Source of the DNA: Amoebophrya sp. A120
Lineage: Eukaryota; Protista; Dinoflagellata
DNA length: 64,000 nucleotides
NCBI GenBank assembly: GCA_905178155.1
Contig: CAJINV010000004.1
Coordinates: forward strand, 10,647,655-10,711,654
Reading direction: 5' to 3'
This document shows, piece after piece, positions 29,993-64,000 of this stretch. Both the position numbers and the translations under genes were made by a program. Every line of letters begins with the position of its first letter. Within the stretch, counting starts at the first letter, position 1. Below the pieces are notes generated by a model that was given only the letters and a program-made list of their open reading frames with translations, was not told the DNA's origin and did no database searches.

Positions 29993-31918
29993 GTGTCAGG
30001 GCTACAGCTATCTATTCTTCGAATCAGGATGCTGATCCAACTCCTTGCACTTGTTGCAGGCGGAAAAATGGTAGGTGTTTCGCCTTTAATTCTGCTTATT
30101 TGGCCTCATCCGAACAACAACATCAGCCACCCCCCCCCCCCCCCCCTTCGCCCAAAAATCTCGGCTCCGTCCGCAAACACTACGGATACTGCGACGCGAA
30201 TTAATACGAATATGACAATAGCATCGCGGGATGCGGAGGTACAAGATGAGATTGCTTTTGCGCAGAGGGTGATGCAGGCCCAGGACCTTTATTTTGCTCG
30301 AGTACGTGTACAGGATATGCGATCAAATATGAAGACGCAATGGCTCCAAGCACGAACGGCGCTCGAATTTGCGGAGGCGAATCTTCGCATGATTGAATTC
30401 GAATTGCAGCTAATACACGATAGGGAAGACCAGATGAAACAAAGCGACTTTCGGGAAAACGACCTGGATTACAACTTTTTCGTAAACTTCCACGTGCTCC
30501 AAGATCATTACGCTGACATCTACGGTATCGATTTGCCCGAGGCGCAGACGGACGAAGTAGATTTGCCTGTAGTCCGCGCTGCCGCTTGCTCATTTACCTG
30601 TGCCGACTGGAACGATGATTTTGTGATCGATCCAAAAGAGGAAGCTTCTACCTCTTGCTCCCTCCTGCAAATCCCCTCTACTGGCCCACGAGAACGCGAA
30701 GGGATCGACGTGATAGAGTATTTCGAGAACTGCGGCCCCGAAGGACACGAAGTGATGGATCTACAACATGGCCGCGTGAACATTAACAACAAAACAAGAA
30801 TAACATACGAGGAACTTCATCACAAAGGCAACAGCACAGCGACGGGGGGATCGCCGTCGACCACTTTGCAGCTGGATGAGCACCTGAAGCCATGGCGTGA
30901 ATATTTGCCCTCCTGGGCCCGCTCATCGTCGGAGGCCGGCTCATCGTCGGAGTCAATCTCTTCTTCAGGTTCAGGGTCATCATCAACATCAGGGTCGTCC
31001 TCATCCGGGTCGTCGTCGGCCATATCTGACGAAACAGTGATATCAGAGGCAAGCAGTGACTCACGACGGAAAGCCCGCCTAGGGCGAGCAGCCTGGGAGC
31101 AATTACGGGCCAGGTGGCGCCGTCCTCGGCAAGAGCGAGACTCGCCAAATCCGGACGAAGATTCCGCCGAATCTGATTGGGTACCGCCAAGCCCTACAGA
31201 ATTTTCGGCCGAGACCATCGCAGAGACGAGTAGAGTCGCAGGAGATCTCATGAAACAGCGAATCATACCCACACCAGGCCGTCAAATGGCTGTCGACTAC
31301 GCGCGAACCCGGGACTTGGAAAATCGCAGGAAGAAGCAAGAAGAAACTGAAACAAAAAATGATATCCTTTCCGAAGGGGGGAACGAGCCCGGACAGCTCC
31401 TGTCTACACGGAGAGATATAAACGCGAGAACATATCCAGTGGACGGGAGGTTCAGCACGTTGAGGCACACTGGCACCGCCACCGGTTTATCAACACGGTT
31501 CATGCGGGAGGCGAATGGACCGTGCTTCTGTAGTGATGAAGAAACTCGTAATCGCCGCGATCGACAAGTGAAACGTCGCGCAAAGGCTTTGCGCGAGGCG
31601 GATTATACTGTGACCATTTTGCCCACCTTAAAAATGGAGATTATGGGAAAAGAAACGATTCTTACCAAGGGAGACATGAAGAACCTCCAACTCATGACTA
31701 CAGAAAAGGGGACCAGGCAAAGACTTCTGACTGTAAAAGAAGCGAACAAGAAGTATACAAAGCGGTATATCTATGAAGAGAAAGAATTCTTTGATGAAAA
31801 TTCGGATCACGACCGTTTCAACTCGCCGAAGTCCAACGAAGGGCGAAAGTTTGTGTTGATGCCCAAAAAGCAAGACGAGAATAGTGATTCTAGAGGCTGG
31901 ACGTCTTGGCTTCGTTGA
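29993..31918 (+). CDS. Hypothetical intronless protein, possibly element-borne (start uncertain; ATG at 30211 plausible)
   Basis: 641-codon ORF with a coiled-coil-like N-terminal part and a Ser-rich linker; no recognisable domain. Confidence 0.55.
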   Translation: MSGLQLSILRIRMLIQLLALVAGGKMVGVSPLILLIWPHPNNNISHPPPPPLRPKISAPSANTTDTATRINTNMTIASRDAEVQDEIAFAQRVMQAQDLYFARVRVQDMRSNMKTQWLQARTALEFAEANLRMIEFELQLIHDREDQMKQSDFRENDLDYNFFVNFHVLQDHYADIYGIDLPEAQTDEVDLPVVRAAACSFTCADWNDDFVIDPKEEASTSCSLLQIPSTGPREREGIDVIEYFENCGPEGHEVMDLQHGRVNINNKTRITYEELHHKGNSTATGGSPSTTLQLDEHLKPWREYLPSWARSSSEAGSSSESISSSGSGSSSTSGSSSSGSSSAISDETVISEASSDSRRKARLGRAAWEQLRARWRRPRQERDSPNPDEDSAESDWVPPSPTEFSAETIAETSRVAGDLMKQRIIPTPGRQMAVDYARTRDLENRRKKQEETETKNDILSEGGNEPGQLLSTRRDINARTYPVDGRFSTLRHTGTATGLSTRFMREANGPCFCSDEETRNRRDRQVKRRAKALREADYTVTILPTLKMEIMGKETILTKGDMKNLQLMTTEKGTRQRLLTVKEANKKYTKRYIYEEKEFFDENSDHDRFNSPKSNEGRKFVLMPKKQDENSDSRGWTSWLR

Positions 31919-32876: not shown

Positions 32877-35863
32877 ATGTTCAAGCGAGTGTTGGCAACG
32901 CAGGGCCTGGGCGCCGCGCACGACGACTCCGACTCGGAGGACATGACGGTGCGGCAAAAAACCCGCATGTACAACAAGTTCATTCCCGGCGCCGCACGGG
33001 GTCAGTCGTGTCAAGAAGATGATGATATTGTTAAGGCTTACAGAAATTAGTTCCTACCCTTGTTCCCGAAAGCTTAGGTTTGAAAAAAATGGAAACAAAC
33101 CGCGAGGGGGGTTTAGCTTGCACACTCTCGCAGTCGCTTGGAATGGCCGAAGGCCATGAACCCTGTGGCTGGGAAGCAGCCAGCGTGCGAGCTTGGGGGA
33201 GAATGGGCAGCCGTCTTCGGCGGGGCTGCCGCATTAGTATTTGATGTGGCGAAAACCCTTGGGAACAAATTGCTGGAAGTCACCTGCGTAAGATTTGTGG
33301 TCCGATCGGCAATACCTATTGGAGCACAAACCCTACGCAGGTGAGTTACGGATATTAGCTCTCAGGATTTCCGCCGCATCACGAAATTCTTGACGCAGCG
33401 AAGATCCTGGGAAATAATTTCTGTAAGCTACCTGCGTAAGATTTGTCTTCTCACTGGTAATACCGATCTGGGCACAAATCTTATGCAGGTGACTTACAGA
33501 AATTACTTCCCAGGATTTGCGTGCTGCGTCTCCAATCGCCTCACTTGGAAACGAGGATCATCAGTGTGTCCGAGTGTGGCGACTGGAAACGCAGTACGCA
33601 AATCCCAGGAGTGCATTTCTTTGAGGCACGAAAGCCGAAGCTGTAGGCGCGCGAGTTCTGCTGTGCTCTTAGGTAAGAAAGCTCGCGCAGCAGCTTTCCC
33701 CTCCTGGCCTTCTAGAAGCGTGCGTCTGAACACATGCACAGAAAGATCTACTTTTTCTTCTAGGAAGAAAACGCAAACTCTTCTAGAAGAAGAAGCGCCT
33801 TCTTCTAGAAGCTGCGTTTTCTAGAAGAAAGCAAAGCTGTGTCTTCTACAGGAAGACCAGCCTTCTAGAAGAAGACAAAACTTCGCGTCTTCTTCTAGAA
33901 GAGGACGCAGCTTCTTCTAGAAGAAGAAGCTGCCTTTTCTTCTAGGAACTCAGTTTCTAGAAGAAAACTTCTTCTTGTCCAAATGAGATGACTGCAGAAA
34001 AAACACGGAAATCCTGGGAACTCATTTCTGTAAGTCCGTTGCGTAGGGTTTGCACTCAGGTGGGGATTACCGATCGAAATACAGATCCTACGCAACCTAC
34101 TTACAGAAATGAGTTCCCAGGATCCCACATCCGAGAATTCTCGGATGTAAGTTCACATCCGAGAAATTTTCGAACGTGGACGGACATTCGAGAATTCCTC
34201 GGATTGCAGCTCACATCCGAGAACTTAGCGGATGTGAGCCGCAAGAGAACTTTCGCGCGCAAAGTGCCGAACTTTGGCGCCCTGCTCGTGAAAGTTCGAT
34301 CCGCGTGTCCAAATGGGGTGATTGCAGAAAAAACACGGAAATCCTGGGAACTAATTTCTGTAAGTTCATTCCCGGCGCCGCACGGGGCCAGTCGTGTCAA
34401 GAAGATGATAATAATGTTCTCAGCAAGGGCGAGGGCCAACATTCTCTTGATGTGGAAGATGAGCCAGTACATGTGATGAACAAGCGTGGAAACTACAGAG
34501 GTGATGAACAATCCAGTAGCTTTTGCTCCGAGGAGGAAGAGACCGACTCCGTGGACGAGGGGGATGATGTTGAAGAGCCTACTGGTGCGGCGGCGTTAAA
34601 GATGAAAATAAAGCTGCCCTCTGAAGAAGGTGAAGCCGCACCAGACGACGGTGGCCGAAAGGTTGTACCAAAGACCTCCACTGCGCGCTGTACTACCCGG
34701 CCTTCCATCGACAGTGACGACGACAGTGATTTTGACGACACGCCCGCGTGGCCCGCGGCGTGCGAGGTGGAGCGCAGCGCGAAGCCGCTGACCAGCAAGT
34801 TCCGGTGCGAGCTCTGCCCGGATAAGATTTTGAAGTCGCAAGCGGAGCTGGACGGGCACTTGCGGTCGAAAAAGCACCGGAAAGTGGTGGAGGAACTGGA
34901 GCGGGCGGCGAAGATGGGCTTCGCCAAGTATGAACAGGAACTACTGAAGAAGCAAGCGGCGGAGCAAAATTCAAATCACCTCCAAGGTGGTCGTGGGTCT
35001 GCGACGCGAAAGAATGCGACCGGAGATGAGGACAAGTCGCTCTTATCAAATGTAAAAATGTGTGGGTCTGGAAACTTGTGATGCTGTGTGGCGTATCATG
35101 AAGAGGCCACAATTGCTGGCTCAGCATGACAAGTTTCTGAGTGTCTAGGTGTTGCCTATTCTGCATGACAAACTGCGTTTCTGCATCACAGAAAAGTAGC
35201 GCTCTTGGGTAACGTGCACGACAGATTTAAGAGTCATGCCAGACAAGCATGACAAACATGCATTCTTCCAGACCCAGACATTTTTACAGTTGATAGCTTT
35301 GGTCCGAGGCGAAAAAGAAGCGGGAGGCGAAAAAGGAGAAGTATCTGGCGAAAAAGAGAGAGCAGAAGCGGAAGGGCCGCGCCGCGGCGGCGGTTTTGAA
35401 GGGCGGAGTCAAGAAGGACGATGGTCGTGAGAAGCAAGAGAATGTTGGGAAGAAAAAAGGTAACAAGAAAGGTCCGCCTGCGGAGAAAAAGAAGGAAGAT
35501 CAAGTTGACACTACAGCCACTTCTGCGGCGTTAATACGAGGCGAAAAAGGCAGTACAAAGGTGGACAAAAAGCAACATCCAAAAGGGAAAGCAGGTTCGG
35601 GAAGCAAATCGAATGGCGACGATACCAATATCCTTGCGACATCTACGGCATCTGCCGTTGTAGTAGAAGCGGAGCAAAAGGAGAAAAAAACATCATTGTC
35701 GGTGGCAGGGCGAAAGAAAAAGCCTGCTGCGAAGGTGAAAGCAGTAGAAGACGGCTCTGCGAAAATCGAAAACGGTGCGAAGACGGTGAAGAGCCGCGGG
35801 ACCAATGTGGTCGAGAAAAAAGTCGTGAAGAAGGTCGTCGGAAAGAAAAAGAAGCAAAAGTAA
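32877..35863 (+). CDS. C2H2 (U1/matrin/JAZ-type) zinc-finger protein with Lys-rich tail
   Basis: MFKRVLATQGLG... then exon 34365-35043 with FRCELCPDKILKSQAELDGHLRSKKH, then exon 35301-35863. Interrupted by a 1.33-kb cassette array and one introner. Confidence 0.7.
33037..34364. mobile_element. Composite TIR-cassette array with ~64-bp flanking duplication
   Basis: Perfect 18-bp outer IR CTTACAGAAATTAGTTCC/GGAACTAATTTCTGTAAG; three internal 65-bp linkers; exon sequence 32979-33036 repeated at 34365-34428. Confidence 0.85.
35044..35295. mobile_element. Introner, family A
   Basis: TIR present; flanks GCTCT/GCTTT; the join gives KSL|WSEAKK; near-identical to 49115-49373. Confidence 0.9.
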
Positions 35864-41744: not shown

Positions 41745-44700
41745 TACCCCGGGGTGGGACCCCTCAGTCCCTGGTACGCCTGCTGCGGCGTCGACGCCCA
41801 GCTCTGGAGTGAAGGGCCCCCCGCGGGGCGGCCGCCGGGTCACCCCGAGAGTACCGTCGGGAGCAACATTGGGGCTGCAGAAGGCGCAGAACCACCCCGG
41901 GCGGCGGAAGTCATAAATCTCCTGGCGAGCAGTGGAGGACGACCTGGGCCGACTGCGACGGAAGGACCTACTTTTGTCGCAGCTCCTGCCGCAGGAGTAC
42001 CAGCATCGTCTTCGTCCGCCGGGGCCTCGGTGGACCAGAGTGTTTTTAGCCCCGGCAGCAGCACGAGAACATCTTCACGCAGCGCACGGATAGCAGAAGG
42101 GCCCGTTCTATCCTCAGGAAAAACGTCCCCACACCAGAGTCAAGATGGGAAATCTGCTAGACAAATCAGCCAGCTTTCGCTGTTTCGCATGACAGGTTTA
42201 CTCTCATAGTGTAGTCCTGTCTCGCTAGTTCAGCAGCGTCACAGATCTAGCATATCATGCTGATTCTAGCATCACAAACTCCAAAACACAAATAGAAAAT
42301 GCTTCTCTCATGGGGCGCCGCATGGGAAACTTTTTTGGCATGCAGATTTGCATGACAACTCTGGGAGGGGGACGTTTTTCCGCAGGATGCGTTCGTGTTG
42401 AAGATCGCGTCGAGAATGGAGGTGATGACCCATTGCCTATCAAATGTAAAAATATCTGGGTCTGGAAAAATGCAACCTGTCATGCTAAATCTGAAGCGTG
42501 CAAAAATCTGTGTTGCATGATTACCAAAAGTCGTCCAGTTTTGACCAAGTCGGGAGGGAGTTTCTCATGCAGGATAGGCATGAGAGAGAGCGCACAGAAT
42601 CTGTCATGCCGGGTCCTGCATGCCAGGCCTCATGGGTCATGGAAAACCTGCATCACAAATGTTGCATTCTTCCAGACCCAGACACTTTTGCATTTGATAT
42701 TGCCAGCACGGCCAGAACAGGAGTACACCGCGCTATCTATCCCCGAGAAAAAAGCAGACAGGGCATACTTGCAATGCAATGAGAAATTATGATTAACAGC
42801 AAAATGAAAATCTGTCATGGGCGACCCCGTCACTCCCCATAGCATCGTGTTTAAGACATGCCATACAGATTTTTTCGTCTATTCATTTTTGCATATTATA
42901 CAAATATGCCCTGCCGGTCTTTTTCTGTGGGATACTATCATCTGCTGGAATTGCGGGTGAGGAATCTACTTCGGTTGGCACGACCTCGACGAAGTCGTCC
43001 GATTCGCGAAAGCTGGAGCCGAACGATGAAAACGAAAAACAAGACACGGCTGCTCAAGACGGTGATCGTCAAGATTCGTCAAGAGATGAACGGCAAAGCC
43101 GCAGGAGAGACGAGCAGGACATAGAAATCGCTCAGGTGTTGCAATGTCGACCGTAGTTGTACTCCGTAGTTTTCAGAGACTACATCAAGGTCATGATCTC
43201 GACTGTAGAAGTAACCCCACAGGTAATGTTAAGATACGCATGACAAGTTCATCTTTTGAGATTCTTAAACTGGACATGGATCTTCAAGGGAAACTTGTGT
43301 TAAGTTTGTGAAAGCGGCAGGGGGGGAGATTTGGATATTCCTCATACTTTTCACGCAAAACAAAAGACTCCGGCCCTCATAATTGCAGCATGCTATTGCA
43401 GCACCTGAGCGGGCTATATGACGCATCTTTTTCAAGCCAGAGGTCCGCCTTTTCGTCATCGGGGGCGGAATTGCAAGACGTAGAACGACAGCGGGTTGTG
43501 ACGCCGCAGTCAGAGCAAGCACTGGAACCGCTGCCGCAGCCGAATCATATGCCAGGAAAAATATGTAGTTTCAGTCTCAACGAATAACCTTTGCAGAGGA
43601 CTCAGCAACACAAATACGGTCAGCACGGAACACAGAATCTGTCATGCGTGAGACACAAGGGACGGATAGGGAAAGCATGTAATATGTAGTGAGGTCACCG
43701 AACGGTTCTAACCGGGGAGTTTTTTTGACAGCTCCCGTGAAAAACGACCGGCAGTTTTCAAGCGGCCGGAAGGCTTTTTTGACATAAAAAATTTTCAATT
43801 ATCAAGCGGCCGGGGCTTTGTTGTCAAACAAGCCCGGTCGAAAGCTATCGATTCGCACTGGATAAAACGACGCAGGGGAGCCGGCAAAAGGGGCGCCCTT
43901 CTGAGGCGCCCGCCGCCTTAGTTTCTGGCGATTTGGGGCGCCCAAAAAGGGGCGCGCAAAAAACGCGCCCAAAATCAGAACAGCGAAACAGCATGGCACG
44001 GCCGCGATTTCGGAGCATTTTGGGCGGCCGCGAAAGCGGCCGCCTTTTCGCCGTTTTCAGAGCCTGGGAAGCTTTGCAAAACGCGCTGGCGAGAAATATA
44101 AAAACGAAAAAAAGAAAAAGCGCGCCAGACGCGCAAAGCCAATCCGCATGCTATGGGCCCGATTTTTCGTCGCTTTTTGGGCGCCCCCCGTGGCGCCCGG
44201 ATCGGCCTCATAGCATGGGGGCTGGCTTTCGGAAAGGAATTTCGGAAATTTGCCAAAATTTGCGACGCTTATCAGGCGGCCGCCATACCGTGGGGCCTAA
44301 CGTTACTCACGGCGGTACGGCGGGCCCAGAAAAATCAAAGCCGCGACCAAGGCGGCGACCGGCAAGAAAACGCCCACGACCTCACTACCTCCGCCCCGGC
44401 GGCTATATTTGGTACAGAAGGCGCGTCCTCTCTCACCCGGCGAGCATGGCAGTATCGTGTTGAGACTGCGTACACAGTTTTTTTTTGCGACACATGAAGC
44501 ACCGTTTTCCACATCTGCAGTGGGAGAGACAAGGGCGTATCCAGTGTTATAAAAACTGTGTTGGTGTAGGTCTCTTGGGCTACTGAACACCATCAGTCAC
44601 AAATTCGCTCTGCATAAAAAGAAAAAAGACGCGTCATGCACAGGTAGTACAGCGGATTTAATTTTCCGTGAGAAGACGCTATCAAGGTTGTAGTATTCCC

Positions 44701-53246: not shown

Positions 53247-54478
53247 AGTTGAAGAGACAGACGACAGAGTCGTTGTAACACCTGAGCGGGCGATTAGCCG
53301 AAGAGTCGTCTATTCCCGTCTTGATCCGCAGTACTACCCCGCATCAGACCTGCAGTTTAACCCGGGCTGCGTTCCAGGTAAGGTGGAGGTTCCTCACAGT
53401 AGGAGAGTGCACAACCCCTCCATAATTCTCTCCTTTGTCATGCAACTATGCCAATTGCACAACTGCCAGCTCTGCTCTGCTCGTTTTCTTTTGACATGGT
53501 GCGTGTGAGAAGCTCCTGCGGAGCAATCATAGTGAACCAGTTGTAGTACTGTAATCATCCTGCTCTGATGGAACTCTACTGATGTCGTACTGACGCTACA
53601 ACATTATCCAGAGTGAGTGACTCTCCTGTCACTCCGCACACAGCAGTACTGGGTGCCCGTCCACTCATTAGAATGAGAAAAGATAATGTTTATCCCGGAC
53701 ACGCACAAATATGATGATGATGATGATGTTTTGTTGTGGTGTTCTTGTCCTTCAAAGAAATGAGGGAGATAAGGGGCTGTGCAATTTGGATAGACTGTGG
53801 CGGCTTAACCTTCCCAGACCAAATTCCGGCGAAGGAAGCTCGGGTGGCAGAGCAGCTGCGAGAGGTAGCAACCGCTGCCGCATGGAACAAACGGGACCGG
53901 CGTGCAGCGGGATCCAGCATCTGGGATCCTTGCAACTCCTGCAGCTCCTCCTGCGCTAGCTTCGTCACGGCGCGGTCGTGCGCGAGTCACGAAGAGTGCT
54001 CCCCCTCGGTGAATATGGCATTTGCAAATACGTTTGGGTCTGGAAGAGATCCAACTTCCTTGTGATGCATTGTGTAGATCACACGTACGAATTGGTCTTG
54101 CGCGGGGAGCAGCAGATACCCATTTTTCGCCATGCTGATGCGGAATAGGCATTGTAAGGGCCTTACAATAAACCATGTGATGCTAATATTTATTCTCTCC
54201 CGTTTCTTTTTCCAAACCTCATGGGGGACGCAAAATCTGGCGCATGACAAACTCCCAGGCTGATCCAGCCCCAGACATTTTTGCATTTGATAGTGCTGAA
54301 AGTCGAGCAAGGCCACCAGCGACCTTGCTTTATCGAGGAGGTGCAAATCCAGCCGCAGACGCAGCGTAGCGGCGGTTTTCTTTCCTGTATGAGCTGCTTC
54401 CCTGCCTCTATCGGTACCAGCTGGCCCTCGTCCGGTGGTAGCGCGACGGAGATCTCAACACCTGCTCGCCTTGTGTAA
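53247..54478 (+). CDS. Coding exons, possibly the C-terminal tail of the DHHC gene
   Basis: Exons ~53247-53377 (GTAAG donor), ~53818-54010 and ~54293-54478 join in frame. Confidence 0.45.
54014..54292. mobile_element. Introner, family A
   Basis: TIR present; flanks GTGAA/GTGCT. Confidence 0.75.
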
Positions 54479-54886
54479 TTGGTGACGGTGGTGCTGCCCT
54501 TCAATATTACTTATATCTAACTAAAAAATGAAAGAGAGTTGCTCATGCTGCCATGCGCTTTTGCCGTGCTAAGTAATCCTGACTCTTGGTCTTGACAGAC
54601 AGAAATACACACCCACTCGCACTTTCATCTTGCGAAAATTTGTTTGCACGCCCGCACGGTCTACTTATTTGGTGACACTTTTATAGAACTACTCTACGGG
54701 TTGTCGATGTCGTCGTGTTAGCCACAGATTTTGCAATTGGTCTGCCGAAACGAAAAAAACAGGTTCTTTGAAAATATAGTATGTTTTATTTTATTACAGC
54801 AGAATCGGCACAACTTCCACTTACCAAATTCGATATCAATGAACACAGGAAACGTCGCTCTGAAGATGAACTACAAGTGCGATTAT

Positions 54887-55665
54887 CTGGTAACCAAATG
54901 CGTGCGCGCGCGATATTGCTTAGCAAACGCAGCGCGAAGGCAGTTGCCGTTACCATATAGGGCAACCGCCGGGAGGCGTGAAGGTCAGGGAAATGGCCAG
55001 AAATGAAGCGGGAGAAGGGAAAAAAAGCGGACCAGATGGGAAAATGGCCAGGACGTCAAAAATGTTGCCAAAACGGCAGAAGCCAAGCGGGAGAAGGTGA
55101 AAAAAGAGCATTTTTGCGGTTTGGCCCACTTGATATCGGAAAAAGAGACGGACTATTTTTTGCTCCGCCCGCTGGCCAGCTGCGTTGGAGAAGCAGGCCC
55201 GCGACCTGTTCGGAAGCCTTGGGCCGCTTCGTAACTGGAAAAAGTTGGGAAAAAATGGCAAAAAGTCGCGGCATAACGTGGGTGGGAGCAATCGTCGGAT
55301 TTTGTCCAGATCACCCGGGCCGCTTGGAAAATGGGAAAAGAGGAAAAATCTTGCAAAAGCGCAATCCTTCCGCAGGCTTCAAAACTGCCAGTCAGCTGAG
55401 GGCGGTGAAAATGTGCAGAGCCCTTCGGCCGACTAAAAACCTGAAAAAAGAGCGAAAATTAAAAAAAATCGAGAACCCTCGGCAGGCTGACAAACTGGCC
55501 GCCGAGGGCGGTCCGGCGGGCGCGTGGTCGCGCCATACCGTCGGGATTGTGAAAAAAAAAACCGCACTAGAGGCGGGCGGAGGGATGTCACAAAATCCCC
55601 ATTTGCCCTGGATTGTGGGCACAAATCCGGCACCTCCGCCGCATCTGAAATGGCCGATTTTGATG
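54887..55665. mobile_element. GC-rich insertion flanked by a ~49-bp duplication
   Basis: CGCTCTGAAGATGAACTACAAGTGCGATTAT on both sides; hairpins near both ends. Confidence 0.65.
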
Positions 55666-55739
55666 GTTAGCCACAGAAAACGCCGCTCTGAAGATGAACT
55701 ACAAGTGCGATTATACGACAGAAATGAAGCTATTTTATC

Positions 55740-56611
55740 GACACATCTACCCTGGTAGATTCTTTTCGTGGAGTGACTGGAAGGAGTTCCTCCGGTCTAG
55801 TTTGTTCATGGGCTGGCAGATCCCTAGAAGCTAATGCCTGGAGGTACTGGACTCCCTTGCCCTGCGAGAGGGGCGGGAGGGTGCCTCCCGTTCGCGGTGT
55901 TTGGAGTGCGTTTTGAGCTGTGAGACGCAGCTATTTTTGTCTCTACACGCAGGTTTACATGTTCCGCTAGAGTGCAGAGCATTGCCTAGAGGGCAGTCCC
56001 AGCGGGGACAGTTTGCGTTTGCCGATGCTTCGCTAGAGTGCGGAGCATTGCCTAGAGGGCAGCCCCAGCGGGGGCAGTTTGCGTTTGCCGATGCTTCGCT
56101 AGAGTGCGGAGCATTGCCTAGAGGGCAGTCCCAGTGGGGACAGTTATTTGCGTTCGCCGAAGCTTCGCTAGAGTGCGAGACATCTGTCTTGAGGGCAGTC
56201 CCAGAGTGACAGGTTTGCGCATGCTCGCCATGAGGCCGGCCCCAACGGAGGCGGTGTCGCGGTGTTTTGCTACAAGGCCAGTTTCCGCGGGGAGTAGTTT
56301 TGCGGGCATTTGTTTTGGGGAAAGATGACATCTTGATCTTGTGGCCGGGGTCGCCACTGTCCGGCGGCGTCGTTTGGCGCATTATTTCCGTTCTCTTTGG
56401 ACGATATCGATATGCCTTCTGTCCTCGATCTCGCCTTGCTTTGGGAACAGGGGTCGTTTGCCACTGGCGGTACCCATACCCAATCCGTTACCCTTGCGAA
56501 CTTGTTCCCATGCTTTGGCTGGGGTTCTTGGTGTCCAATTTGTTCGCCCTCTGTTCCCTTAGCAGGGCGGGGTCGAGGATCCTCCTCGTCAATTACGAAG
56601 TGCAATCAGCT
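55740..56611. mobile_element. Insertion flanked by a ~60-bp duplication, containing a 66-bp tandem repeat (~55965-56210)
   Basis: 55680-55739 is repeated at 56612-56671; unit CGCTAGAGTGCGGAGCATTGCCTAGAGGGCAG... occurs about 3.5 times. Confidence 0.7.
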
Positions 56612-56828
56612 ACGTCGCTCTGAAGATGAACTACAAGTGCGATTATACGACAGAAATGAAGCTATTTTATCAAGTGCAATAGATCTGTCTGGGTCCTCTG
56701 GAAAAATGCAGTTGGCTGTCATGCGGAATCTGCGTGACGCTGACCGCCCAGAAGCTGCTCTAGCATGCAGGCAATGGCACCACAGGTCCTCGCTTCGAGG
56801 AGGTTCCTCAGTGCCTATCCGGCACGAG

Positions 56829-57102
56829 TATCAAATGCAAAAATGTCTGGGTCTGGAAGAATGCGCGATTTGTCATGCAGCTTTGATTCCATGACCATGA
56901 CCCATGAGGTCTGGAATGCAGCACCTAGCATGACAGATTCTGTGCGATCTCTCTCATGCCTATCCTGCGTGACAAACTCCCTCCCGACTTGTGCAAAACT
57001 GGACGACCTTTGGTAATCCTGCAACACAGATTTTTGCATGCTTGAGATTTAGCATGACAAGTTGCATTCTTCCAGACCACCCAGACATTTTTACAATCCA
57101 TA
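56829..57102. mobile_element. Introner, family A, nested inside another family-A-like element (56668-57261)
   Basis: TSD ACGAG; interior is the reverse complement of 6596-6864. Confidence 0.9.
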
Positions 57103-58778
57103 ACGAGAAATTCAAATTCTTGATCATTTTGAAGGCAAGAACTGGGCTGCGTTTTACTTCGCTGTCCATGGTGGATTGGAGATTTTTTTGTGGTCTGAAA
57201 AAATGCGCCTCACAAGTAAGTTTCCATCGTTCCAGAAGACCAGACATGTTTGCAATTGGTAGAGATGGATGGAAGACGATATCTTGCCACAACAATGACG
57301 AGCATGGAAAAATTATTCTCCAAGAAAAAAACTGCGTTTAGTCGAGTGACTCGGTTTTTTATGTGAACGCCATCACGATAAATCTGCATCTGCTTTACAC
57401 TACATTTATATAATATACAGACAAAGGTTACTACTGTCCTGCGCCGCGAGTAAGGAAGAGCTAAGTTAGTATGACGCATGACATAAACCAAAACCAAGTC
57501 TGATGGATATCGTGGCGGCGCATCAATACCAGTGTTATACTTCTTGTGCATTTTGCATCACAGACACTAATGCACTTCCGCAGTTTTTTCTTTCATAATT
57601 GTTCAAAACTCGGGTACGGGTATGACCTCGTGGACCGTACACGGTTCGCAATCTGCAACATCAAGTGCAAATGTGTCTGGCGTGTCTTCGGAAAGTAAAC
57701 TTGGGCTCGTTCTTTGTCATGCAGCTCGAAAGATGAACTCAGAGTCAGAACCAGAGCCAGATTTCGTCCTTCATGATTAGTAGATAAAAGTAGTAAAAGG
57801 CGTCGGTCGAGGTTCTTCTGCGATGATTGTAATGCGCGCCTTATCCCCGCCTTGGCATTACGAATAAGCCGCGTTCATCGCCGCGCAGGCTCGTACAGGA
57901 ATATGTACTGTCGTTTTGGTGATCAAAAAAAGCAGTAACGACCCAGACACACTAGCAGTTGATATGCAACTTCGTACTCACGCGGATACGCTACGAGATC
58001 AAGATGATCAAACAAATTCAAATCTTTCTCTTTGCTCAAGTTCACGAACCACTCGAGTCAAATTCTGGCGAATCATGAAAATAACGCACCTATGGATCAG
58101 CAGACGACCAGGCATGAGCAGGTAACAAATCATGTATGTGATGAAAAAATTGCGGAGGTTGAGAACAGGATCTCTCTGCTTTTTCTGAAGATCCACCCGA
58201 AAATGCAAATGCTTTGTTTTGTAAGTACCGCCGGAAGACTCGAATAAAGCAACATGCAGGACCAGAATTCCTCGCACTGTATAAAAAGGTGCGACTATGA
58301 AGATCTTGGCTCTTCAAAAATGTGAATAGAACTCGTTGCAAAATCAGATGGGCGTGAAAATGTAAATGAAAATGGGTCTGATCCGAAGTGCAACGAATTT
58401 TTTGGCAGAGATGCAATATTAAATCTTGTACTTGTCATCTGTTTCGCGGAAACATTGCAATGAAAAATACTCTGACCAGGCAAGAGCACGACAAGTTGTA
58501 CAACCAAGAAAGTTCTTCTTCGAGTAGAAATAATCGGAATGCAACAATCTCAATCGAAAACCTCTTCTTACACTAGACTAGAAGAGAACGCGATTTATTG
58601 ATGCATACAAATAAGAACTCGTACTCGACAACCTGAACGTCAGTACTTTTATTCAGATGAGCGTCGTGATGTGCATGTCAACATAAGACTTTCATTTATT
58701 TTCCTGATCTCCTGCAGCGCGAAGGCGAAACCTATTTCACGACTCCTCCAGTGTGTCCTCGAAGCTGCCGAAGCGGTT

Positions 58779-61700
58779 ATGGCGAAAACCAAGGGGATGA
58801 TGAAGAAGAAGGCCACGGCCAAGGGAGCCAGAGGTGGCTCGGCGCGGCGCCATACGAAGGGGAGTAAAGCTTCCTGTGCAGCGGTGACCCAGAAGCGGAC
58901 GACTGCACAGCTGTCTGATGATGAGGATAGCATCGATGAGGAGGACGGCGTATTCGACGCACAAGACGAGAGGCAGTACGGGGAAACGATCGACACCATC
59001 TTCGAGCGCCAAGGACCGCAGAAGAAGAGAAAAACGAAAACCAGGGGGCAACGCAAGGCGAGCACGGGGCGGGACGATGACAGCGACAGCGACAGCGACC
59101 GCGCATTCGACGACGACGATGTATTCGCCAGCGCGGCAGCCGGCGGCGGGGATCTCATGTCGCTCATGAACGCAATGCAGGCAAAGGCAAAGGGAGCTGC
59201 GACGACCAGCACGTCAGCTGAGGCGAAAAACAAGAAGGGGCGAGTGGCAAAAAAATCTTCGTTGCCCCAGTTTGCTCCTGATGCGGGGGCAAGCGACGAG
59301 GAGGGCAGTTTTTCTGACGATGACGGTAGTGCGGAACACGAAACTGCGGCTCAACTCGAGCACGACGAACTACTGCAGGACGTGGCGGCGCAACTCGGGA
59401 CGTCGCCCGACGAGAATGACGGACACGGCAAGGCTACTGGTGGACCGCGTCGCAACCGGCTCGCGCACGTGTCGGAGTCGATGGCGCACCTGCTCGGGGG
59501 GGAGGACGTAGACGAGGCGGATGCGGTGAACCTACAGGAGCTTCTGCAGCCACTGGCCCAGAAGCAGGCGCTGGGCAACGTGCAGCGGCAGCTGTTGAAG
59601 CTGGAGGAGAGTGCGCAGAAGCTGGAACACGAGGAGGTACTGGGCGACGTCAAGCAGGCACGCAAAGATCGGGCGGTAAACTACGAAGCGTCCAAGCGGG
59701 ACGCCCGCAAGTGGGACCAGCAAGTGCGGGCGAACCGAAACTCGAGTCAGCTGCTCTTTGGCGATTACGAGGACCTGCTGGAGAACCGGTCGACGAAAAG
59801 CCTCGCTGCGAGCTTCCAGTTTAAAACAGGTATAGGTGGAATCATAATATCTGCATTACTCTGCTGGGCGTCCAAGTCCATGCAACTTGTAGACGTGCAT
59901 CGTAAATTGGTACTGGCCCCCTCCATGCATCAAATACTGGGGTGTGAATCTGTACGGCAGCTGCAAACAAGTCAGACATTAGAACAGCGTTGTTGTCGTG
60001 TAGTATATCTGAATCTTCAATCTGGCCAGCGAGTGCTTGTAAACACTTGTTTGCGATTGCGCAAGGAAATTCGGCAGGATTGGGATAAAAATATTTGAAT
60101 AAGTGATTGCATTGTACTACGCTCGTGGGTCAGACAACATATGGCCCTGGTTCCACCGTGTCAACAACATCTATATGTTGCTAAAAAGGTCGTTCTCACC
60201 TTAGATCACGAAACGAAATGAACGCTACAACAGCCGCGAATTCGATAGCCAAGCAGGGGAGCGAGCAGACGGACTCGTTTGAGGCCGACCTCGCGCTCGC
60301 ACTTGCAGAGACGAAAGAGCTGGAAATGGCAGCACGGGGTATCGTCAGCAAAAATTCCCCTACGTACCGCCCACACTCAAAAGGATAAGGATATATCATT
60401 TCCCTGCTGGGTATGCGTATAATTACTTACAGTTTCAGTTGTCATCAACCTGTGTTGCAGCGGGGGACTTGTAACGCGTTGTGATGAGAGAAGATAATTT
60501 TTGTCATGCTAATAGTCTGGCTCTGGGTGGACAGTGTGTGAGGCTTTGCCTTGTCGTACTGAACAGGCAAGAAAGCAAGTTTGGCTGCTATCCACGACGG
60601 CAGTTCAGATTTCGTTCCGTCTGACACGAAAGGTGTATTTATTTAAGTAATACATAGGAAATACAAGAAATAAACGTGCTATGCCACGAGTTTCGAGTTC
60701 GTAAAGCTTTGTGCATGGGGTCGACGTGGTGGGAGCTTTTTTGCTTTTGATACGACACGAGCAACGACTGGATGGCACCGGCACGGGCGGTCTTCTGGCC
60801 GATGGCGACGGCCAGACGACGGGAGCGAACCCGGCCATCCGCGAAGCCAAGCGGACGCAGCAGATGGCGCACCTGCGGGCGTTGCAGCTGCGCGAGCTCA
60901 CGCGGGCGAAGAGATTGAAAAAAATCAAGTCAAAGTCCTTCCACCGGGTTAAGAAACGCATGGACAACAAGGAACGCGAAAAAGTACTTTTGGATCGCAT
61001 ATTCTTGTTCTGCTTACTGCTACAAAACTGCGTATATAGAATGTTGACCACACCGGACGACTGGACACTCTCGTGTGAGTGTGCAACACTTTTTACGGAT
61101 TTAATGCAAACTGCCTGTCTTGCATGACAAATTGCAAAATTTCTGATTTTAGGGAATATTTTTATGTTGAGGTGAATTATGTCAAGAGCTGAGTATTAGT
61201 TTTACTTTTACGTAGTGCCTACGATGTATGAAATAGGTGCTGTCCCGACTGGAGCAGGAGGATCCAGAGCTGGCGGCGCAAATCAAGCGTGAGATGTATC
61301 GAATCGAAAAGTGCCCCGCACCCGGAGGACATTTTGCAAAATTGTATTTGAATTGTGAAGGTCACACCTCGAAAAATGAAAGGAGGCATGCGACTTCTTT
61401 TTACTCTGGATCTGGAATGTATTAATGCGGTCAGCACTTGACAGGTCCAGGTGACTAGTACAGGTGTCGCCTATGGTACTGGGCACCCCTCCACAAAGAA
61501 AGATTTTCCTTTTTGCCGATCTGCACGGAAAATTCTTGATTGGTCATGGATATGCATTTTACCACTTACATCATCCGAAAATAAAACAACGCGTCAAATA
61601 TAAACTTTATTGTCCCGCATAGAACGATTGTGAAGCGCCATGCTTCAGAGGTGCGTAACCTACTTCGTTCGGGCTATGAATGAAAATCTATTCTTGAACG

Positions 61701-64000
61701 GTGACAACATCGGTACAGCCATTTTAGCATCAGAAACATCAGCTTTTCCTGGGGGCAGGGCACTGTATTTCAGGTTGATAAAAGGGAGCAGAAGCTGGCA
61801 GAGGTGCGGTCGCGGCGGGGAGCAGACGCGCGCAAGAAGTGGGCCCGGGCGGCGCAACGCTTCGGGGGCAAGGAGATGCGGTCAGTGATCTCCACGCAGG
61901 CCCAGAAAGCCGAAGATGACAAGCGAGCATTGCAGCGCGCTCTGAAGGCGAAGGAGCAGAACAACGACTCAGACGACGAGGACCTAGATTTGTCGGACGA
62001 AGATTTGGATCCCCTGGAGAAAGCAGAGCAGCTGGCCAAGCGAGAGCTGGAGGAGAGTTTCAAGCTGCACGAGACCCCGGGCGACGACACCATGAAGAAG
62101 GGCCTGTTCGGCCTGAAGTTTATGCAGGACGCCATGGCTATGGAAGTGTCAGAATCGAAATCAACAAAATCGAAATAATTTGTGATGCACAAAATCGATA
62201 CCACTTGGAGCCTCAATTTCCAAGTGGCGCATGACAAATTTCGGGAGCGCCAAAATCCAGGCTGTCATGCTGTTTTGGCAAAGAAGACTGCTCCTGGCGT
62301 GCTGCTCCGGCAGCACATCGCCTTCCCCTAATCAGGCTTGCAATCGGTCTCATTTGCCTACTCCCCAACACAGGCCTTCCTTGCCGTACATTTTACGCAT
62401 TACAAATTTTTCGATTTTGTCGATTTCGATCCTGACACATCCATAATGGCCAAAAAGCGCGAGGAGTCGCAGAAGCAGGCCGCCGCGCTGCTGGGGGAGC
62501 TCGGGAGGTGGCGGGAGGAAGCCGCGCCGACGAAAAAGGACCAGGACGAGGAGGTGGATCAGCGCAGTGACCACGACGACACGAGCTCCTGTGACGAGGA
62601 AGGCGAAGACGAGGCGTTTTCGCACAAGGAACTCGCTGAGGCGGAAAAGGCGCTCGGCGCGCCGGGGAGCGGCGAAGAAGGTGCCGTGATACTGTCGTCG
62701 ACATCTCCACCGTGTACTACAGGAGCGACGAGGACCTCTTCTGGCTCTAGTACAGGGAGGACCACGTCTTCGTGCAACACCTTGTTCATCGCGCCGGGGG
62801 CCAGCACGACGGGGGCGAACAGGAGAAGCGGTGAAGCCACGGGAGTAGTCACGGTGAAGCGAGAAAAAGCAGGTAGCGTTGTACCTCCAGCACACGACCA
62901 AAAAGGACGAACGGCACAAGAACTGCAGCAGACACACCCGGAAGGTGGTGAAAACTCGTCTGGCCAGCCGCCTGCAAGAGGGACCAGCGAGCGATCTGCA
63001 CCAGCGAAGTTCACGAGCGAGCCTCACGAGGATCGTGGAAGCGAGGGTGATAATAGCAGCGACAGCGAGGATTCCGAGGGCGATTTGCAGCAGGTGAAAA
63101 ATTATCCGGGGCAAATATGAAAGTTTTGGGTCCAGGATATAAGTCCTGCTTACTTTATTTTTATACTCTTGTTGATATTGTCTGAGTCTGTGTCACGCCT
63201 AAACTCTAATTCTAAGCGATGGCGCAATGAATTTTTAGATGAGCAGCACTAGGCTAGGCTACATTTTTGGCATGATTGTTACCCAGCGGTGGCTATTAAG
63301 CATGACAAATTGTCGCACGACGCCGTCGTGTCGTGCATATTGCATGAGCAACAGCAATTGTATTTCCAAACCACAATCAAGCACCGGCTTTGCTGCAAAA
63401 ATCACAGGCATCACAGAATGCACAGTCATTTTGCAAGAACAACAGCGGCATCATTCAACTGTGTCAGACCGCCCAGAGAAATCATGATTTGCCATGCATA
63501 AGAACCCCTTTGCTCAAGTGGACCGCGCGGACGCCGACAACGCACAGCTGATTCGCTCCGCGTTTGCCACGTTTGTATCAAAATGAAAAAACGGCATCCC
63601 CCCATACTCAAACAAATTTCCCGTTTCTTTGTATCAGCACGTTTTGTGAAGATGAGGATGACATAGCAGTTTGGCATATGTGAAGGGTACTACTGCAGAC
63701 GTGGCCTCTACCCATTTTGTCTGGCATGGAAAAGCAAAAGCGTTGCGTGTTCCGCATGACAGAAAACCATTGAAGTGCCTGAGTAGCGCCGCAATTAGTT
63801 GCCTGCAACCCAGGTCGCAATTTTATGTCTGTTTGCCTCCTAGCAAGAATGCAACAAGTCGACTTGTTTTACTGCTGTTTTTAACAAATTCATCACCAGA
63901 AATCTCCTTTCCTAGAAAAACAAATCCGTGCCGTTTGAATATGGGGATGGGGGATGATGTTTCCCCGCAATAATTTGGGGAAGACAACCAGACGGACTTT
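58779..64000 (+). CDS. UTP14: U3 snoRNA-associated protein 14, multi-exon, 3'-partial
   Basis: ARKWDQQVRANRNSSQLLF; MAHLRALQLRELTRAKRLKKIKSKSFHRVKKR; KKWAR; GLFGLKFMQDAM. Confidence 0.9.
60340..60752. mobile_element. Degenerate introner in UTP14
   Basis: TATCGTCAGCAAAAATTCCC...GGGAGCTTTTTGCTTTTGATA; TSD decayed. Confidence 0.6.
61297..61780. mobile_element. Introner in UTP14 with usable GT-AG boundaries
   Basis: TATCGAATCGAAAAGTGCCC...GGGCACTGTATTTCAGGTTGATA; GT at 61296 and AG at 61783-61784 give EM|EQK. Confidence 0.75.
62139..62445. mobile_element. Introner, family E
   Basis: ~50-bp TIR TATGGAAGTGTCAGAATCGAAATC...GATTTCGATCCTGACACATCCATA; TSD ATGGC; the join gives DAMA|KKRE. Confidence 0.95.

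Follow-up and report, generated by a model that had tools for sequence, protein, structure and literature searches.

A short exon segment occurs three times in the 64,000-nt stretch of the Amoebophrya sp. A120 genome analysed here (hereafter the window), at 54844–54886, 55672–55739, and 56612–56671, and the copies are separated by two unrelated blocks of DNA. The reading that we favour, to which we give a probability of about one half, is that the 5′ end of the coding region of a small orphan gene has taken up two foreign, partly multi-copy blocks, in a nested arrangement, by way of filled-in, long-staggered breaks, their removal as non-canonical introns being predicted. The pattern itself was likely made by the fill-in of long staggered break ends together with the capture of foreign DNA. 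It is a long-duplication form of the known insertion-derived introns, the recurrence of which is supported only within the window and the mechanism of which we infer.

Three copies of an exon segment

All features described below lie on the forward (+) strand. The triplication is real, and the three copies reported by the sequence-only reading were recovered at its sites both by BLASTN and by a core search of the window. Copy 1 (54844–54886) and copy 2 (55672–55714) are identical at 41 of 43 positions (E 1.8e-13), copy 2 (55680–55739) and copy 3 (56612–56671) at 59 of 60 (E 8.6e-24), and copies 1 and 3 over the whole of the 35 nt that they share (54852–54886 and 56612–56646, E 7.6e-12). When both strands of the 64-kb window were searched with this 35-nt core, allowing up to 12 substitutions, no site was found beyond the three copies, and there is no sign within the window that the segment is itself a dispersed repeat. 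Its exon-like character, also proposed from the letters, agrees with the public models, in which the duplicated segments are exonic.

Copy 1 consists of the 43 nt common to copy 2, the last 35 of which (segment A) correspond to copy 3. Copy 2 carries these 43 nt plus 25 nt more (segment B) that are common to copy 3, and has a single private change, a C at 55683, while copy 3, of 60 nt, runs on into the downstream exons, as RNA and the public protein P0001 both show. The CACAGG of copy 1 is CACAGA in copy 2. Upstream of copy 1, a piece that we call U (54781–54843) opens with an ATG (54781) that shares the frame of copy 1 and is possibly the ancestral gene start; its frame is open from 54772, with only 27 codons before the repeat, so that openness alone is not significant. 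Downstream of copy 3 (D in the layout given next) come the rest of its exon (56672–56823), the next exon of the gene (57103–57315), and the last exon with the stop codon (57602–57780).

The layout is nested and can be written U-A / insert 1 / A-B / insert 2 / A-B-D. B is missing from copy 1, and the upstream 8 nt from copy 3, which is just what two overlapping target duplications would leave. Both inserts abut the repeat copies on both sides, with no spacer, and the target is unique elsewhere in the window, i.e., each insert is directly flanked by a direct repeat of a unique target, as in a target-site duplication of the transposon type. The 12-mer GTTAGCCACAGA has two exact copies, one at 54717–54728 and the other at the 3′ junction of insert 1 (55666–55677), with about 0.14 exact 12-mers expected by chance in the 2.2-kb region by our own estimate, and it is this patch that is reflected in the start at 54717 previously given to the feature. 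Among the pieces examined, the only junction fully bridged by an independent contig is that of insert 2, copy 3, and the downstream exon (X6 record 20). X4 record 10 (RNA, from a separate study) crosses the border of copy 1 and insert 1, with just 30 letters on the repeat side, and neither junction of copy 2 has, among these pieces, a bridging contig that is independent of the assembly.

Composition of the inserts

The two blocks had been described as unrelated, non-coding, and of about 780 and 870 bp. They are indeed unrelated, with lengths of 785 and 872 nt, but they are non-coding only in part, since P0001 starts at 56412 inside insert 2. At E ≤ 1e-3, neither is similar to the other or to the rest of the window, save for a 66-nt tandem array (3.8 copies, 55965–56219) within insert 2. 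Insert 1 (54887–55671; 785 nt) is purine-rich and multi-copy, probably a member of a repeated family: the X1 DNA contig at 54963–55209 has a depth of 785, which as a summed contig depth is not a copy number, vs. 24.1–30.6 for five unique contigs, so that this insert is not single-copy. Insert 2 (55740–56611, 872 nt) is a mosaic with repeated ends and a single-copy middle, along which the summed X1 depth runs 229, 12.8, 136, 39.6, 435, and 296. Its single-copy contig (56150–56359) has a DNA depth of 30.6, equal to that of the flanks, and hence that DNA gives no sign of an allele free of the insert. Insert 1 also contains a 12-mer of segment B, and insert 2 ends in 14 nt (AAGTGCAATCAGCT) that are similar to the 11 nt after copy 3 (AAGTGCAATAG).

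Two features of an introner element are missing from the inserts, both being devoid of an 8–20-nt inverted-repeat hairpin and flanked by direct repeats of 43 and 60 nt and not of 3–5. Alignment of their ends, in a search for terminal inverted repeats, gave p = 0.17–0.40 over four boundary choices, while the positive controls (the elements at 54013, 56829, and 57316 and the intron 53399–53796) gave p = 0.000–0.014. The MFE structures contain 6 and 4 end-to-end pairs for inserts 1 and 2, respectively, both within the null, vs. 40 for the element at 56829, and there is no exact inverted repeat of at least 8 nt between the boundary zones of either insert. The tail and the reverse-transcriptase or endonuclease domain of a non-LTR retrotransposon or SINE are missing as well: we found no poly(A) or simple-repeat tail at the ends of either insert, in both orientations, and neither type of domain in the five insert ORFs (Pfam).

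Reading frame and public gene models

The translation ALKMNYKCDY offered by the sequence-only reading belongs to a neighbouring frame; the coding frame of the segment is RRSEDELQVRLYDRNEAILS, as in the public proteins P0001 and P0002. P0001 (CAD7948090.1, 267 aa, Amoebophrya sp. A120) begins at the ATG at 56412 and continues into copy 3, with the last 200 nt of insert 2 providing the start codon and the first 67 codons, and its exon borders coincide with two RNA joints (56823>57103 and 57315>57602). P0002 (CAD7948088.1, partial) reads copy 2 and then the sequence following copy 3, which implies a 932-nt repeat-precise intron. The two public models disagree on the exonic copy. P0002 may be an assembly path and not a real transcript, because the stretch of 56 identical nt in copies 2 and 3 is longer than the k = 51 with which the public transcripts were assembled.

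The only relative found for the gene was itself (two matches among 1.84 billion representatives, both of them at this locus; one among 1540 candidates), and Pfam returned no family for the five insert ORFs, P0001, and two upstream ORFs. If copy 1 is joined to what lies past the shared part of copy 3 and the two downstream introner elements are dropped, a 227-codon open frame results, but with only 27 of these codons upstream of the repeat it carries little weight. Codon-usage log-odds, derived from 1155 codons of window genes, did not separate the frames even in known exons, and the search for a spliced-leader-like motif (a 16-mer, with ≤3 mismatches) gave 0 matches vs. 0.97 expected.

Transcript evidence

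We predict that at least some transcripts lose the inserts as non-canonical introns. In RNA, it is copy 3 that is joined to the downstream exons (X6 record 20, X4 record 13, and X3 record 5), and an RNA contig that includes the upstream gene (X3 record 1) ends in copy 1. Neither insert is skipped by any contig or read, although contigs are unable to reveal a joined U-A-B-D, which contains no 31-mer absent from the genome. X6 record 20 spans 56481–56823 and 57103–57315, that is, the last 131 nt of insert 2 are kept and the next introner element is gone. This retained end, together with its coding role in P0001, counts against intron removal. Insert 2 is skipped only in the partial public model P0002. 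The proposal that a complete exon end is restored by the duplication for use in splicing was not supported: excision that is precise to the repeat finds a canonical pair (GT-AG, GC-AG, or AT-AC) at 0 of 44, 0 of 61, and 0 of 36 offsets (0 of 141 in total), and the intron at the second locus ignores the repeat borders (see below).

The upstream contig of X4 (record 9) diverges from the window sequence at 54820, with 48 letters unplaced. A 4-nt repeat, TTAC (54821 and 56593), was considered as an alternative intron border and dropped, the 48 letters being unplaced in the stretch. These letters and the unbridged junctions of copy 2 count against the reading that we favour. Contig depths were rejected as proof that most RNA joins copy 1 to B, given that there is one mean per contig and that the runs disagree. 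Contig cover is lacking at 54882–55067 in X3, 55263–55715 in X4, 54760–54909 in X6, and 55535–55683 in X3, X4, and X6 alike; the raw-read RNA runs X9–X11 yielded 3, 0, and 0 reads, all 3 on the repeated element only and hence uninformative.

Introner elements neighbour the locus. The one at 56829–57102, with terminal inverted repeats of ~30 nt and a 5-bp duplication (ACGAG), is present in DNA contigs and missing from RNA contigs, the joint 56823>57103 being found in X3, X4, and X6. A second element, of another family (57316–57601; inverted-repeat test p = 0.004), is also skipped in RNA, by the joint 57315>57602 (X3 only). Two more joints lie upstream, namely 53398>53797 in X4 and X6 (in X3 just as a loose end of record 1, placed at 53369–53398) and 54012>54297 in X3 and X4, and neither is found in any contig of the DNA-like runs X1 and X7. 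The X1 contigs (records 3, 4, and 8) are continuous across the element borders. The X3 contigs show no differing letters over 1966 and ~800 nt, which indicates that this RNA comes from the same strain and that the skips reflect processing and not empty alleles. Many X1 “joints” from 54292–54296 to 56825–56836 were examined as deletions and rejected, being cross-matches between copies of the introner element.

A second locus at 33 kb

The third case that had been placed at ~33 kb is also present in the window. A 57-nt exon segment of a zinc-finger gene (KFIPGAARGQSCQEDD...) is found at 32976–33032 and again at 34362–34418 (54 of 57 identical), around an insert of 1329 nt (33033–34361) that is full of hairpin elements and has a perfect 18-nt inverted repeat at its ends. 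The orthologue P0003 has a single copy of the segment, and the N-terminal exon is conserved (56% over 52 aa, E 1e-15). The public intron (33030–34373, from the mapping of P0004) is non-canonical and removes the insert, leaving 14 duplicated codons in the protein; the conserved gene demonstrably tolerates this insertion. The annotated intron takes no account of the repeat borders and is set by the hairpin, not by the repeat, and therefore long repeats are unnecessary for splicing at 33 kb. A fourth long duplication (33976–34035 and 34306–34365, 60 nt) was rejected, since it turned out to be the arm of a hairpin, of a family that occurs three times in the insert.

Overall, a target-duplication layout of the form P-X-insert-X-Q is found three times at two loci in 64 kb, with duplications of 43, 57, and 60 nt. 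The sequence-only reading had regarded long duplications as a recurrent mechanism that could make insertions harmless and create introns. Recurrence stands within the window only, the mechanism being one that the layout suggests. At 33 kb, such an insert does sit in a conserved CDS and is spliced out in the public model; at the present locus, an RNA contig keeps the end of insert 2.

Origin of the inserts

In the favoured reading, two nicks 40–60 nt apart would have opened the target, both overhangs would have been filled in, and DNA would have been captured between them. One insertion would have duplicated A+B (60 nt) and the other CACAG.AA+A (43 nt), and either order of the two would yield the present layout. 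Deletion of an insert with one repeat copy would restore the old frame from the ATG at 54781, and an organism with mostly non-GT-AG, insertion-derived introns would manage such a deletion at the RNA level; in an alternative outcome, the gene today may use the new start inside insert 2, as in P0001.

It is possible, if doubtful, that the inserts are transposable elements of a kind that makes 40–60-bp target duplications and recurrently creates introns, both being spliced precisely at the repeats to give an mRNA of the form U-A-B-D. Insert 1 is multi-copy, the 64 kb contain three long duplications, at two loci, of like length (43, 57, and 60 nt), repeat-precise removal restores the 227-codon frame, and the partial model P0002 skips insert 2 in just that manner. 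Among the A120 introners described in PMC12130899 are some derived from non-LTR and LTR retroelements and from TIR transposons. However, the mosaic of insert 2, with its single-copy core, is unlike one element, and no conserved termini, tail, or coding domain were found in the inserts. The joined form is seen in no RNA contig, which contigs are in any case unable to show, and the end of insert 2 is still present in one of them; of the 227 restored codons, just 27 come before the repeat, and the splice at 33 kb does not use the repeat.

An explanation that we also hold only tentatively is a single compound event, in which one break was repaired by error-prone, microhomology-mediated templated synthesis with several template switches, so that the segment was re-copied twice together with repeat-rich DNA from elsewhere. 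By our own rough estimate, two independent hits within 68 nt have a probability of ~0.01 by chance for such a window. This figure makes one compound event of templated repair more likely than two simple staggered breaks, and so do the shared part, in which the three copies differ by no more than 1 nt, and the 12-nt patch, which comes from 127 nt upstream. The near-identity of the copies (0 of 35, 1 of 60, and 2 of 43 differences) and the overlap of the duplications on the same 35 nt agree with it, as does the match of GTTAGCCACAGA at the 3′ junction of insert 1 to 54717–54728, which would also explain the CACAGA of copy 2 vs. the CACAGG of copy 1. So do the likeness between the end of insert 2 (AAGTGCAATCAGCT) and the sequence after copy 3 (AAGTGCAATAG), the 12-mer of B within insert 1, and the mosaic nature of insert 2. 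Against this, the 33-kb locus is a simple single insertion in the same duplication size class, and so a simple type of event exists; the short patches are few and may be due to chance (14 of 100 shuffles give at least 2 matches of the 11-mer, with ≤1 mismatch, in the window); and no donor copy is evident for the single-copy part of insert 2 (depth 30.6).

In ciliates, internal eliminated sequences are removed at the DNA level. A second, hairpin-independent route of intron gain in Amoebophrya, in which capture at 40–60-nt staggered breaks leaves repeats that act as pointers for repeat-precise, non-GT-AG removal and so restore the mRNA, either at the RNA level or by a ciliate-like elimination of DNA in the transcribing stage, is a speculative extension that we consider rather improbable.

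Target-primed reverse transcription is an unlikely source. Insert 1, and perhaps insert 2, would then be non-autonomous retroelements mobilised by non-LTR machinery, with a variable second-strand nick giving rise to long, variable duplications. PMC7789003 and PMC12130899 describe non-LTR retrotransposons, and introners of non-LTR origin, in A120; the duplication lengths do vary (43, 57, and 60 nt), and insert 1 is multi-copy and has no inverted termini. Yet a poly(A) or simple-repeat tail is missing at either end in either orientation, 0 of the 5 insert ORFs contain a reverse-transcriptase or endonuclease domain, and the insert at 33 kb consists of hairpin DNA elements.

Exons are commonly duplicated in tandem, and an assembly artefact would suit the copy 2 junctions, which have no independent bridging contigs, but it is very improbable that the segment was first duplicated in tandem, with foreign DNA entering the spacers later, or that the triplication is artefactual: no spacer separates the copies from the inserts, the absence of B from copy 1 and of the upstream 8 nt from copy 3 agrees with two overlapping target duplications, none of the three repeats has the AGGT that the duplication model of intron gain needs, and X6 record 20 and X4 record 10, RNA contigs of a separate study, connect insert 2 with copy 3 and copy 1 with insert 1, respectively, the latter with only 30 letters on the repeat side.

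Relation to known insertion-derived introns

Non-LTR retrotransposons make target-site duplications of variable length, up to tens of bases, and have no inverted termini. The inserts described here are like them in both respects and unlike them in having no 3′ tail or reverse-transcriptase remnant. In the Rogers model, an intron is reportedly gained by tandem duplication of an exonic AGGT segment, with no foreign DNA between the copies. Here too, two exon-segment copies bracket the putative intron, but there is no AGGT and 785–1329 nt of foreign DNA lie between the copies.

In Amoebophrya, more than 60% of the introns are non-canonical, their origin and recognition being left open in the account of PMC7789003, and the class described there is a hairpin element with a 3–5-bp duplication (Farhat et al., 2021). 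Our inserts share with the A120 introner elements of that article the genome, the insertion of DNA into genes between direct target repeats, for insert 1 the multi-copy sequence, and putative intron borders that are non-GT-AG and ambiguous within the repeat. They differ from them, as characterised in PMC7789003, in the length of their repeats (43 and 60 nt vs. 3–5, with just 3–8 nt scanned in its figures), in lacking an 8–20-nt terminal inverted repeat or hairpin, in being three times longer, in that removal from RNA is only predicted, and in that insert 2 is a mosaic and not a family member.

For A120, Gozashti et al. (2025; PMC12130899) list 58 introner families of several classes. As with the introners presented in Gozashti et al. 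(2022, 2025; PMC9860276, PMC12130899), insertion of mobile DNA into an exon would make the intron and the duplication would supply sequence at one intron border. In 13 of the 58 A120 rows of one dataset of PMC12130899, the automated duplication lengths are 2–5 nt or the duplication was not found, whereas the duplications seen here are ~10 times longer and are unable to supply canonical splice sites. Daphnia, as reported in PMC4202315, offers a case of staggered-break intron gain with 4–12-bp repeats and nested “staggered then staggered” events. The likeness lies in unrelated DNA within an exon and a direct repeat of the adjacent exon at its far end, the source of the insert being mostly unknown there; the difference lies in the ordinary spliceosome and the 4–12 bp of Daphnia vs. 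43–60 nt and no canonical splicing at the repeat here.

The insertions at this locus are thus without the hairpin and the 3–5-bp duplication of the described Amoebophrya class, and have ~10 times longer duplications, in coding sequence. If such a class were common genome-wide (three in 64 kb), it would represent a distinct insertion pathway, through long-staggered breaks or templated repair, and would provide natural test cases of whether the unusual splicing needs the hairpin, the direct repeat, or neither. It would matter for annotation too, as the scans shown in PMC7789003 are for 3–8-nt repeats only and the public models conflict on the exonic copy. The elements beside the locus do fit the description in PMC7789003, with an inverted repeat of TAT, 7 nt, and an A run, a length of ~240–280 nt, and short direct repeats. 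In the local introner family, 5-bp duplications flank 8 of 8 copies, and 6 of these duplications are exact.

Organization of the triplicated segment at 55 kb

The exon-like segment that the sequence-only reading had placed three times around two inserts is indeed present at 54844–54886 (copy 1), 55672–55739 (copy 2), and 56612–56671 (copy 3). Copies 1 and 2 are identical at 41 of 43 nt (E 1.8e-13), copies 2 and 3 at 59 of 60 nt (E 8.6e-24), and copies 1 and 3 at 35 of 35 nt (E 7.6e-12); with up to 12 substitutions allowed, the 35-nt core was found at these three sites and no others on both strands of the whole window. Labeling as U the sequence upstream of copy 1, as A the common 35 nt, as B the following 25 nt, and as D the sequence after copy 3, the order is U-A, insert 1 (785 nt), 8 nt resembling the end of U followed by A-B, insert 2 (872 nt), and A-B-D. 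The frame proposed in that reading (ALKMNYKCDY) is adjacent to the coding one, both public proteins of the locus, P0001 (CAD7948090.1) and P0002 (CAD7948088.1, partial), using RRSEDELQVRLYDRNEAILS. A 12-mer of segment B, CAGAAATGAAGC (55719–55730 and 56651–56662), also appears inside insert 1 at 54998–55009, which may be microhomology or chance.

Introner elements and the nature of the inserts

The window is rich in elements of ~250–280 nt with ~30-nt terminal inverted repeats starting with TAT, which fit the A120 introner elements as published (Farhat et al., 2021; PMC7789003). One family comprises eight copies (4564–4820, 4877–5138, 6596–6864, 10094–10347, 35044–35295, 42438–42699, 54013–54296, and 56829–57102) of 252–284 nt, with TAT-starting inverted repeats ending in an A run and a 5-bp target duplication in all eight (six exact, one with one mismatch and one with two).

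Contigs of sequencing runs X3, X4, and X6, from one sample, omit introner elements exactly, with joints at 54012>54297 (X3, X4), 56823>57103 (X3, X4, X6), and 57315>57602 (X3). A further joint, 53398>53797 (X4 and X6; only a loose end at 53369–53398 in X3), marks another non-canonical intron. Neither this joint nor 54012>54297 was seen in contigs of the other sample (X1, X7), and X1 contigs cross the element borders uninterrupted at an even depth of 24–31. The element-skipping contigs match the window without a single difference over 1966 and about 800 nt, and one of them ends just before a GT. On these grounds we take X3/X4/X6 to be RNA and X1/X7 to be DNA from one strain, and we interpret the skips as splicing. 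The contig that ends before the GT, 4181 nt long and starting at 57864, reaches into a downstream Utp14 homolog (58782–62178, Pfam PF04615 in three exon ORFs), where its match breaks off exactly at 59829/59830.

The intron at 53399–53796 (398 nt) has GT..CT borders (2 nt ambiguous) and an inverted repeat at its ends (p = 0.014); the upstream gene frame is open over this joint and the 54013–54296 element, with a stop at 54476. The X4 contig carrying this gene diverges from the window after 54820, with 48 further unplaced letters, and the same contig in X3 matches on to 54881. Three RNA runs under the same species label (X9–X11) gave 3, 0, and 0 reads over a 6.7-kb stretch; the label seems to cover organisms unlike this strain, or the runs contain little of it.

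Inserts 1 and 2 are not like the neighboring introner elements. No inverted repeat was detected at their ends (p = 0.17–0.40 over the boundary choices tested), against p = 0.000–0.014 for four neighboring introns as control, nor any exact inverted repeat of at least 8 nt between the boundary zones, and in minimum free energy folds their ends pair over 6 and 4 bp vs. 40 in the element at 56829. Neither matches the rest of the window at E ≤ 1e-3. In the DNA run, an insert 1 contig (54963–55209, five differences) has a depth of 785 vs. 24–31 for unique contigs, which makes insert 1 multi-copy and probably a member of a repeat family; summed contig depth is not copy number and serves solely to tell multi-copy from not. 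Insert 2, which contains a 66-nt tandem array, is a mosaic with summed depths along its length of 229, 12.8, 136, 39.6, 435, and 296, and a single-copy core (56150–56359) whose depth of 30.6 equals that of the flanks, so that this DNA gives no sign of an allele lacking the insert.

An insertion-derived intron at 33 kb

A 57-nt repeat (54 of 57 identical; 32976–33032 and 34362–34418) flanks an insert of 1329 nt composed of hairpin elements. It codes KFIPGAARGQSCQEDD in the zinc-finger protein P0004 (461 aa; Pfam zf-met and zf-C2H2_jaz), which keeps 14 duplicated codons, with GAARGQSCQEDD twice; the relative P0003, which comes from a different organism, carries the motif once, and its N-terminal exon is conserved (56% over 52 residues, E 1e-15). 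Because a stop closes the frame 15 nt past the start of the insert, the insert must leave the mRNA, and the public model has a GT..CC intron at 33030–34373 that keeps most of both repeat copies, adding 14 codons. Since the longest identical run between the copies is 26 nt, an assembly at k = 51 could not have invented this junction. The insert ends carry a perfect 18-nt inverted repeat, and the intron borders fall 7 and 9 nt beyond it. Thus, a long-duplication insertion became a non-canonical intron here, its splicing set by the hairpin rather than by the repeat.

Gene models and removal of the 55-kb inserts

A 70-residue translation over copy 3 had two matches among 1.84 billion representative proteins, both from this locus and recorded as Amoebophrya sp. 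A120; two protein searches returned no relatives beyond the locus, and no Pfam domain was found in the gene. The start codon of P0001 (267 aa) is the ATG at 56412 within insert 2, and the model runs through copy 3 into exons 57103–57315 and 57602–57777, whose borders are those of the sequences skipped in RNA contigs. P0002 (61 aa) begins in the end of insert 1, reads copy 2 and continues with residues found after copy 3, so its intron equals insert 2 plus one repeat copy.

Removal of both inserts from at least some transcripts is predicted, which makes them candidate introns. When copy 1 is fused directly to what follows the shared part of copy 3, an open frame of 227 codons is restored, beginning at 54772 (ATG at 54781), with only 27 codons upstream of the repeat; the omission of insert 2 in P0002 also favors removal. 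P0002 may be an assembly path, since the transcripts behind the public models were assembled at k = 51 and copies 2 and 3 have an identical run of 56 nt. Two observations speak against removal, or else for an alternative to it: an X6 contig (record 20) extends from position 56481, inside insert 2, over copy 3 and into the next exon with the introner element gone, and P0001 takes its start from that part of insert 2. No contig joins across insert 1 or insert 2; repeat-precise removal yields no 31-mer new to the genome, so contigs could not reveal it. Such removal would be non-canonical, as a GT-AG, GC-AG, or AT-AC pair occurs at 0 of 44, 0 of 61, and 0 of 36 offsets. Use of the canonical GT and AG sites that closely flank the repeats (54890, 55678, 55755, 56609) would, by our own reading, lead to a frame that stops.

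Origin of the duplications

The P-X-insert-X-Q layout at all three places is the one expected when the long staggered ends of a break are filled in. The three duplications are of similar length (43, 57, and 60 nt), ten times that in the local introner family, and the 55-kb nesting would follow from two staggered-break events in either order. In Daphnia (PMC4202315), staggered-break intron gain leaves repeats of 4–12 bp, far shorter than those here, and includes a second staggered event in a fresh one.

It is possible, if rather unlikely, that one compound templated repair made the triplication instead. Several observations favor it: the copies are near-identical throughout and both duplications overlap on one 35-nt stretch; an exact 12-mer where insert 1 ends at its 3′ side, GTTAGCCACAGA, is found again 127 nt upstream of the target and accounts for the lone mismatch in the opening bases of copy 2, and insert 2 ends in 14 nt that resemble the 11 nt after copy 3. 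Target-primed reverse transcription would give variable long duplications, but neither insert has a tail, no enzyme remnant was found and none of five insert ORFs tested contained a Pfam family.

We class the finding as an intron derived from an insertion, or the scar of one, that has a long target duplication but no hairpin, whereas A120 introner elements combine a hairpin with 3–5 nt repeats. Direct repeats in the A120 paper are 3–5 nt, its supplementary figures spanning 3–8 nt, and automated duplications are 2–5 nt or absent in the 13 rows examined, of 58 for A120, in the 2025 introner dataset (Gozashti et al., 2025; PMC12130899). Full-text literature searches, not exhaustive, returned no report of long duplications around Amoebophrya introns.

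Elsewhere in the window, arrays at 27260–27526 and 29340–29946 lie on opposite strands with periods of ~100–111 nt and are rich in GCGAAAAGCGAA / TTCGCTTTTCGC, and C runs of 17–30 occur at ~28114–28142 and ~30128–30145.
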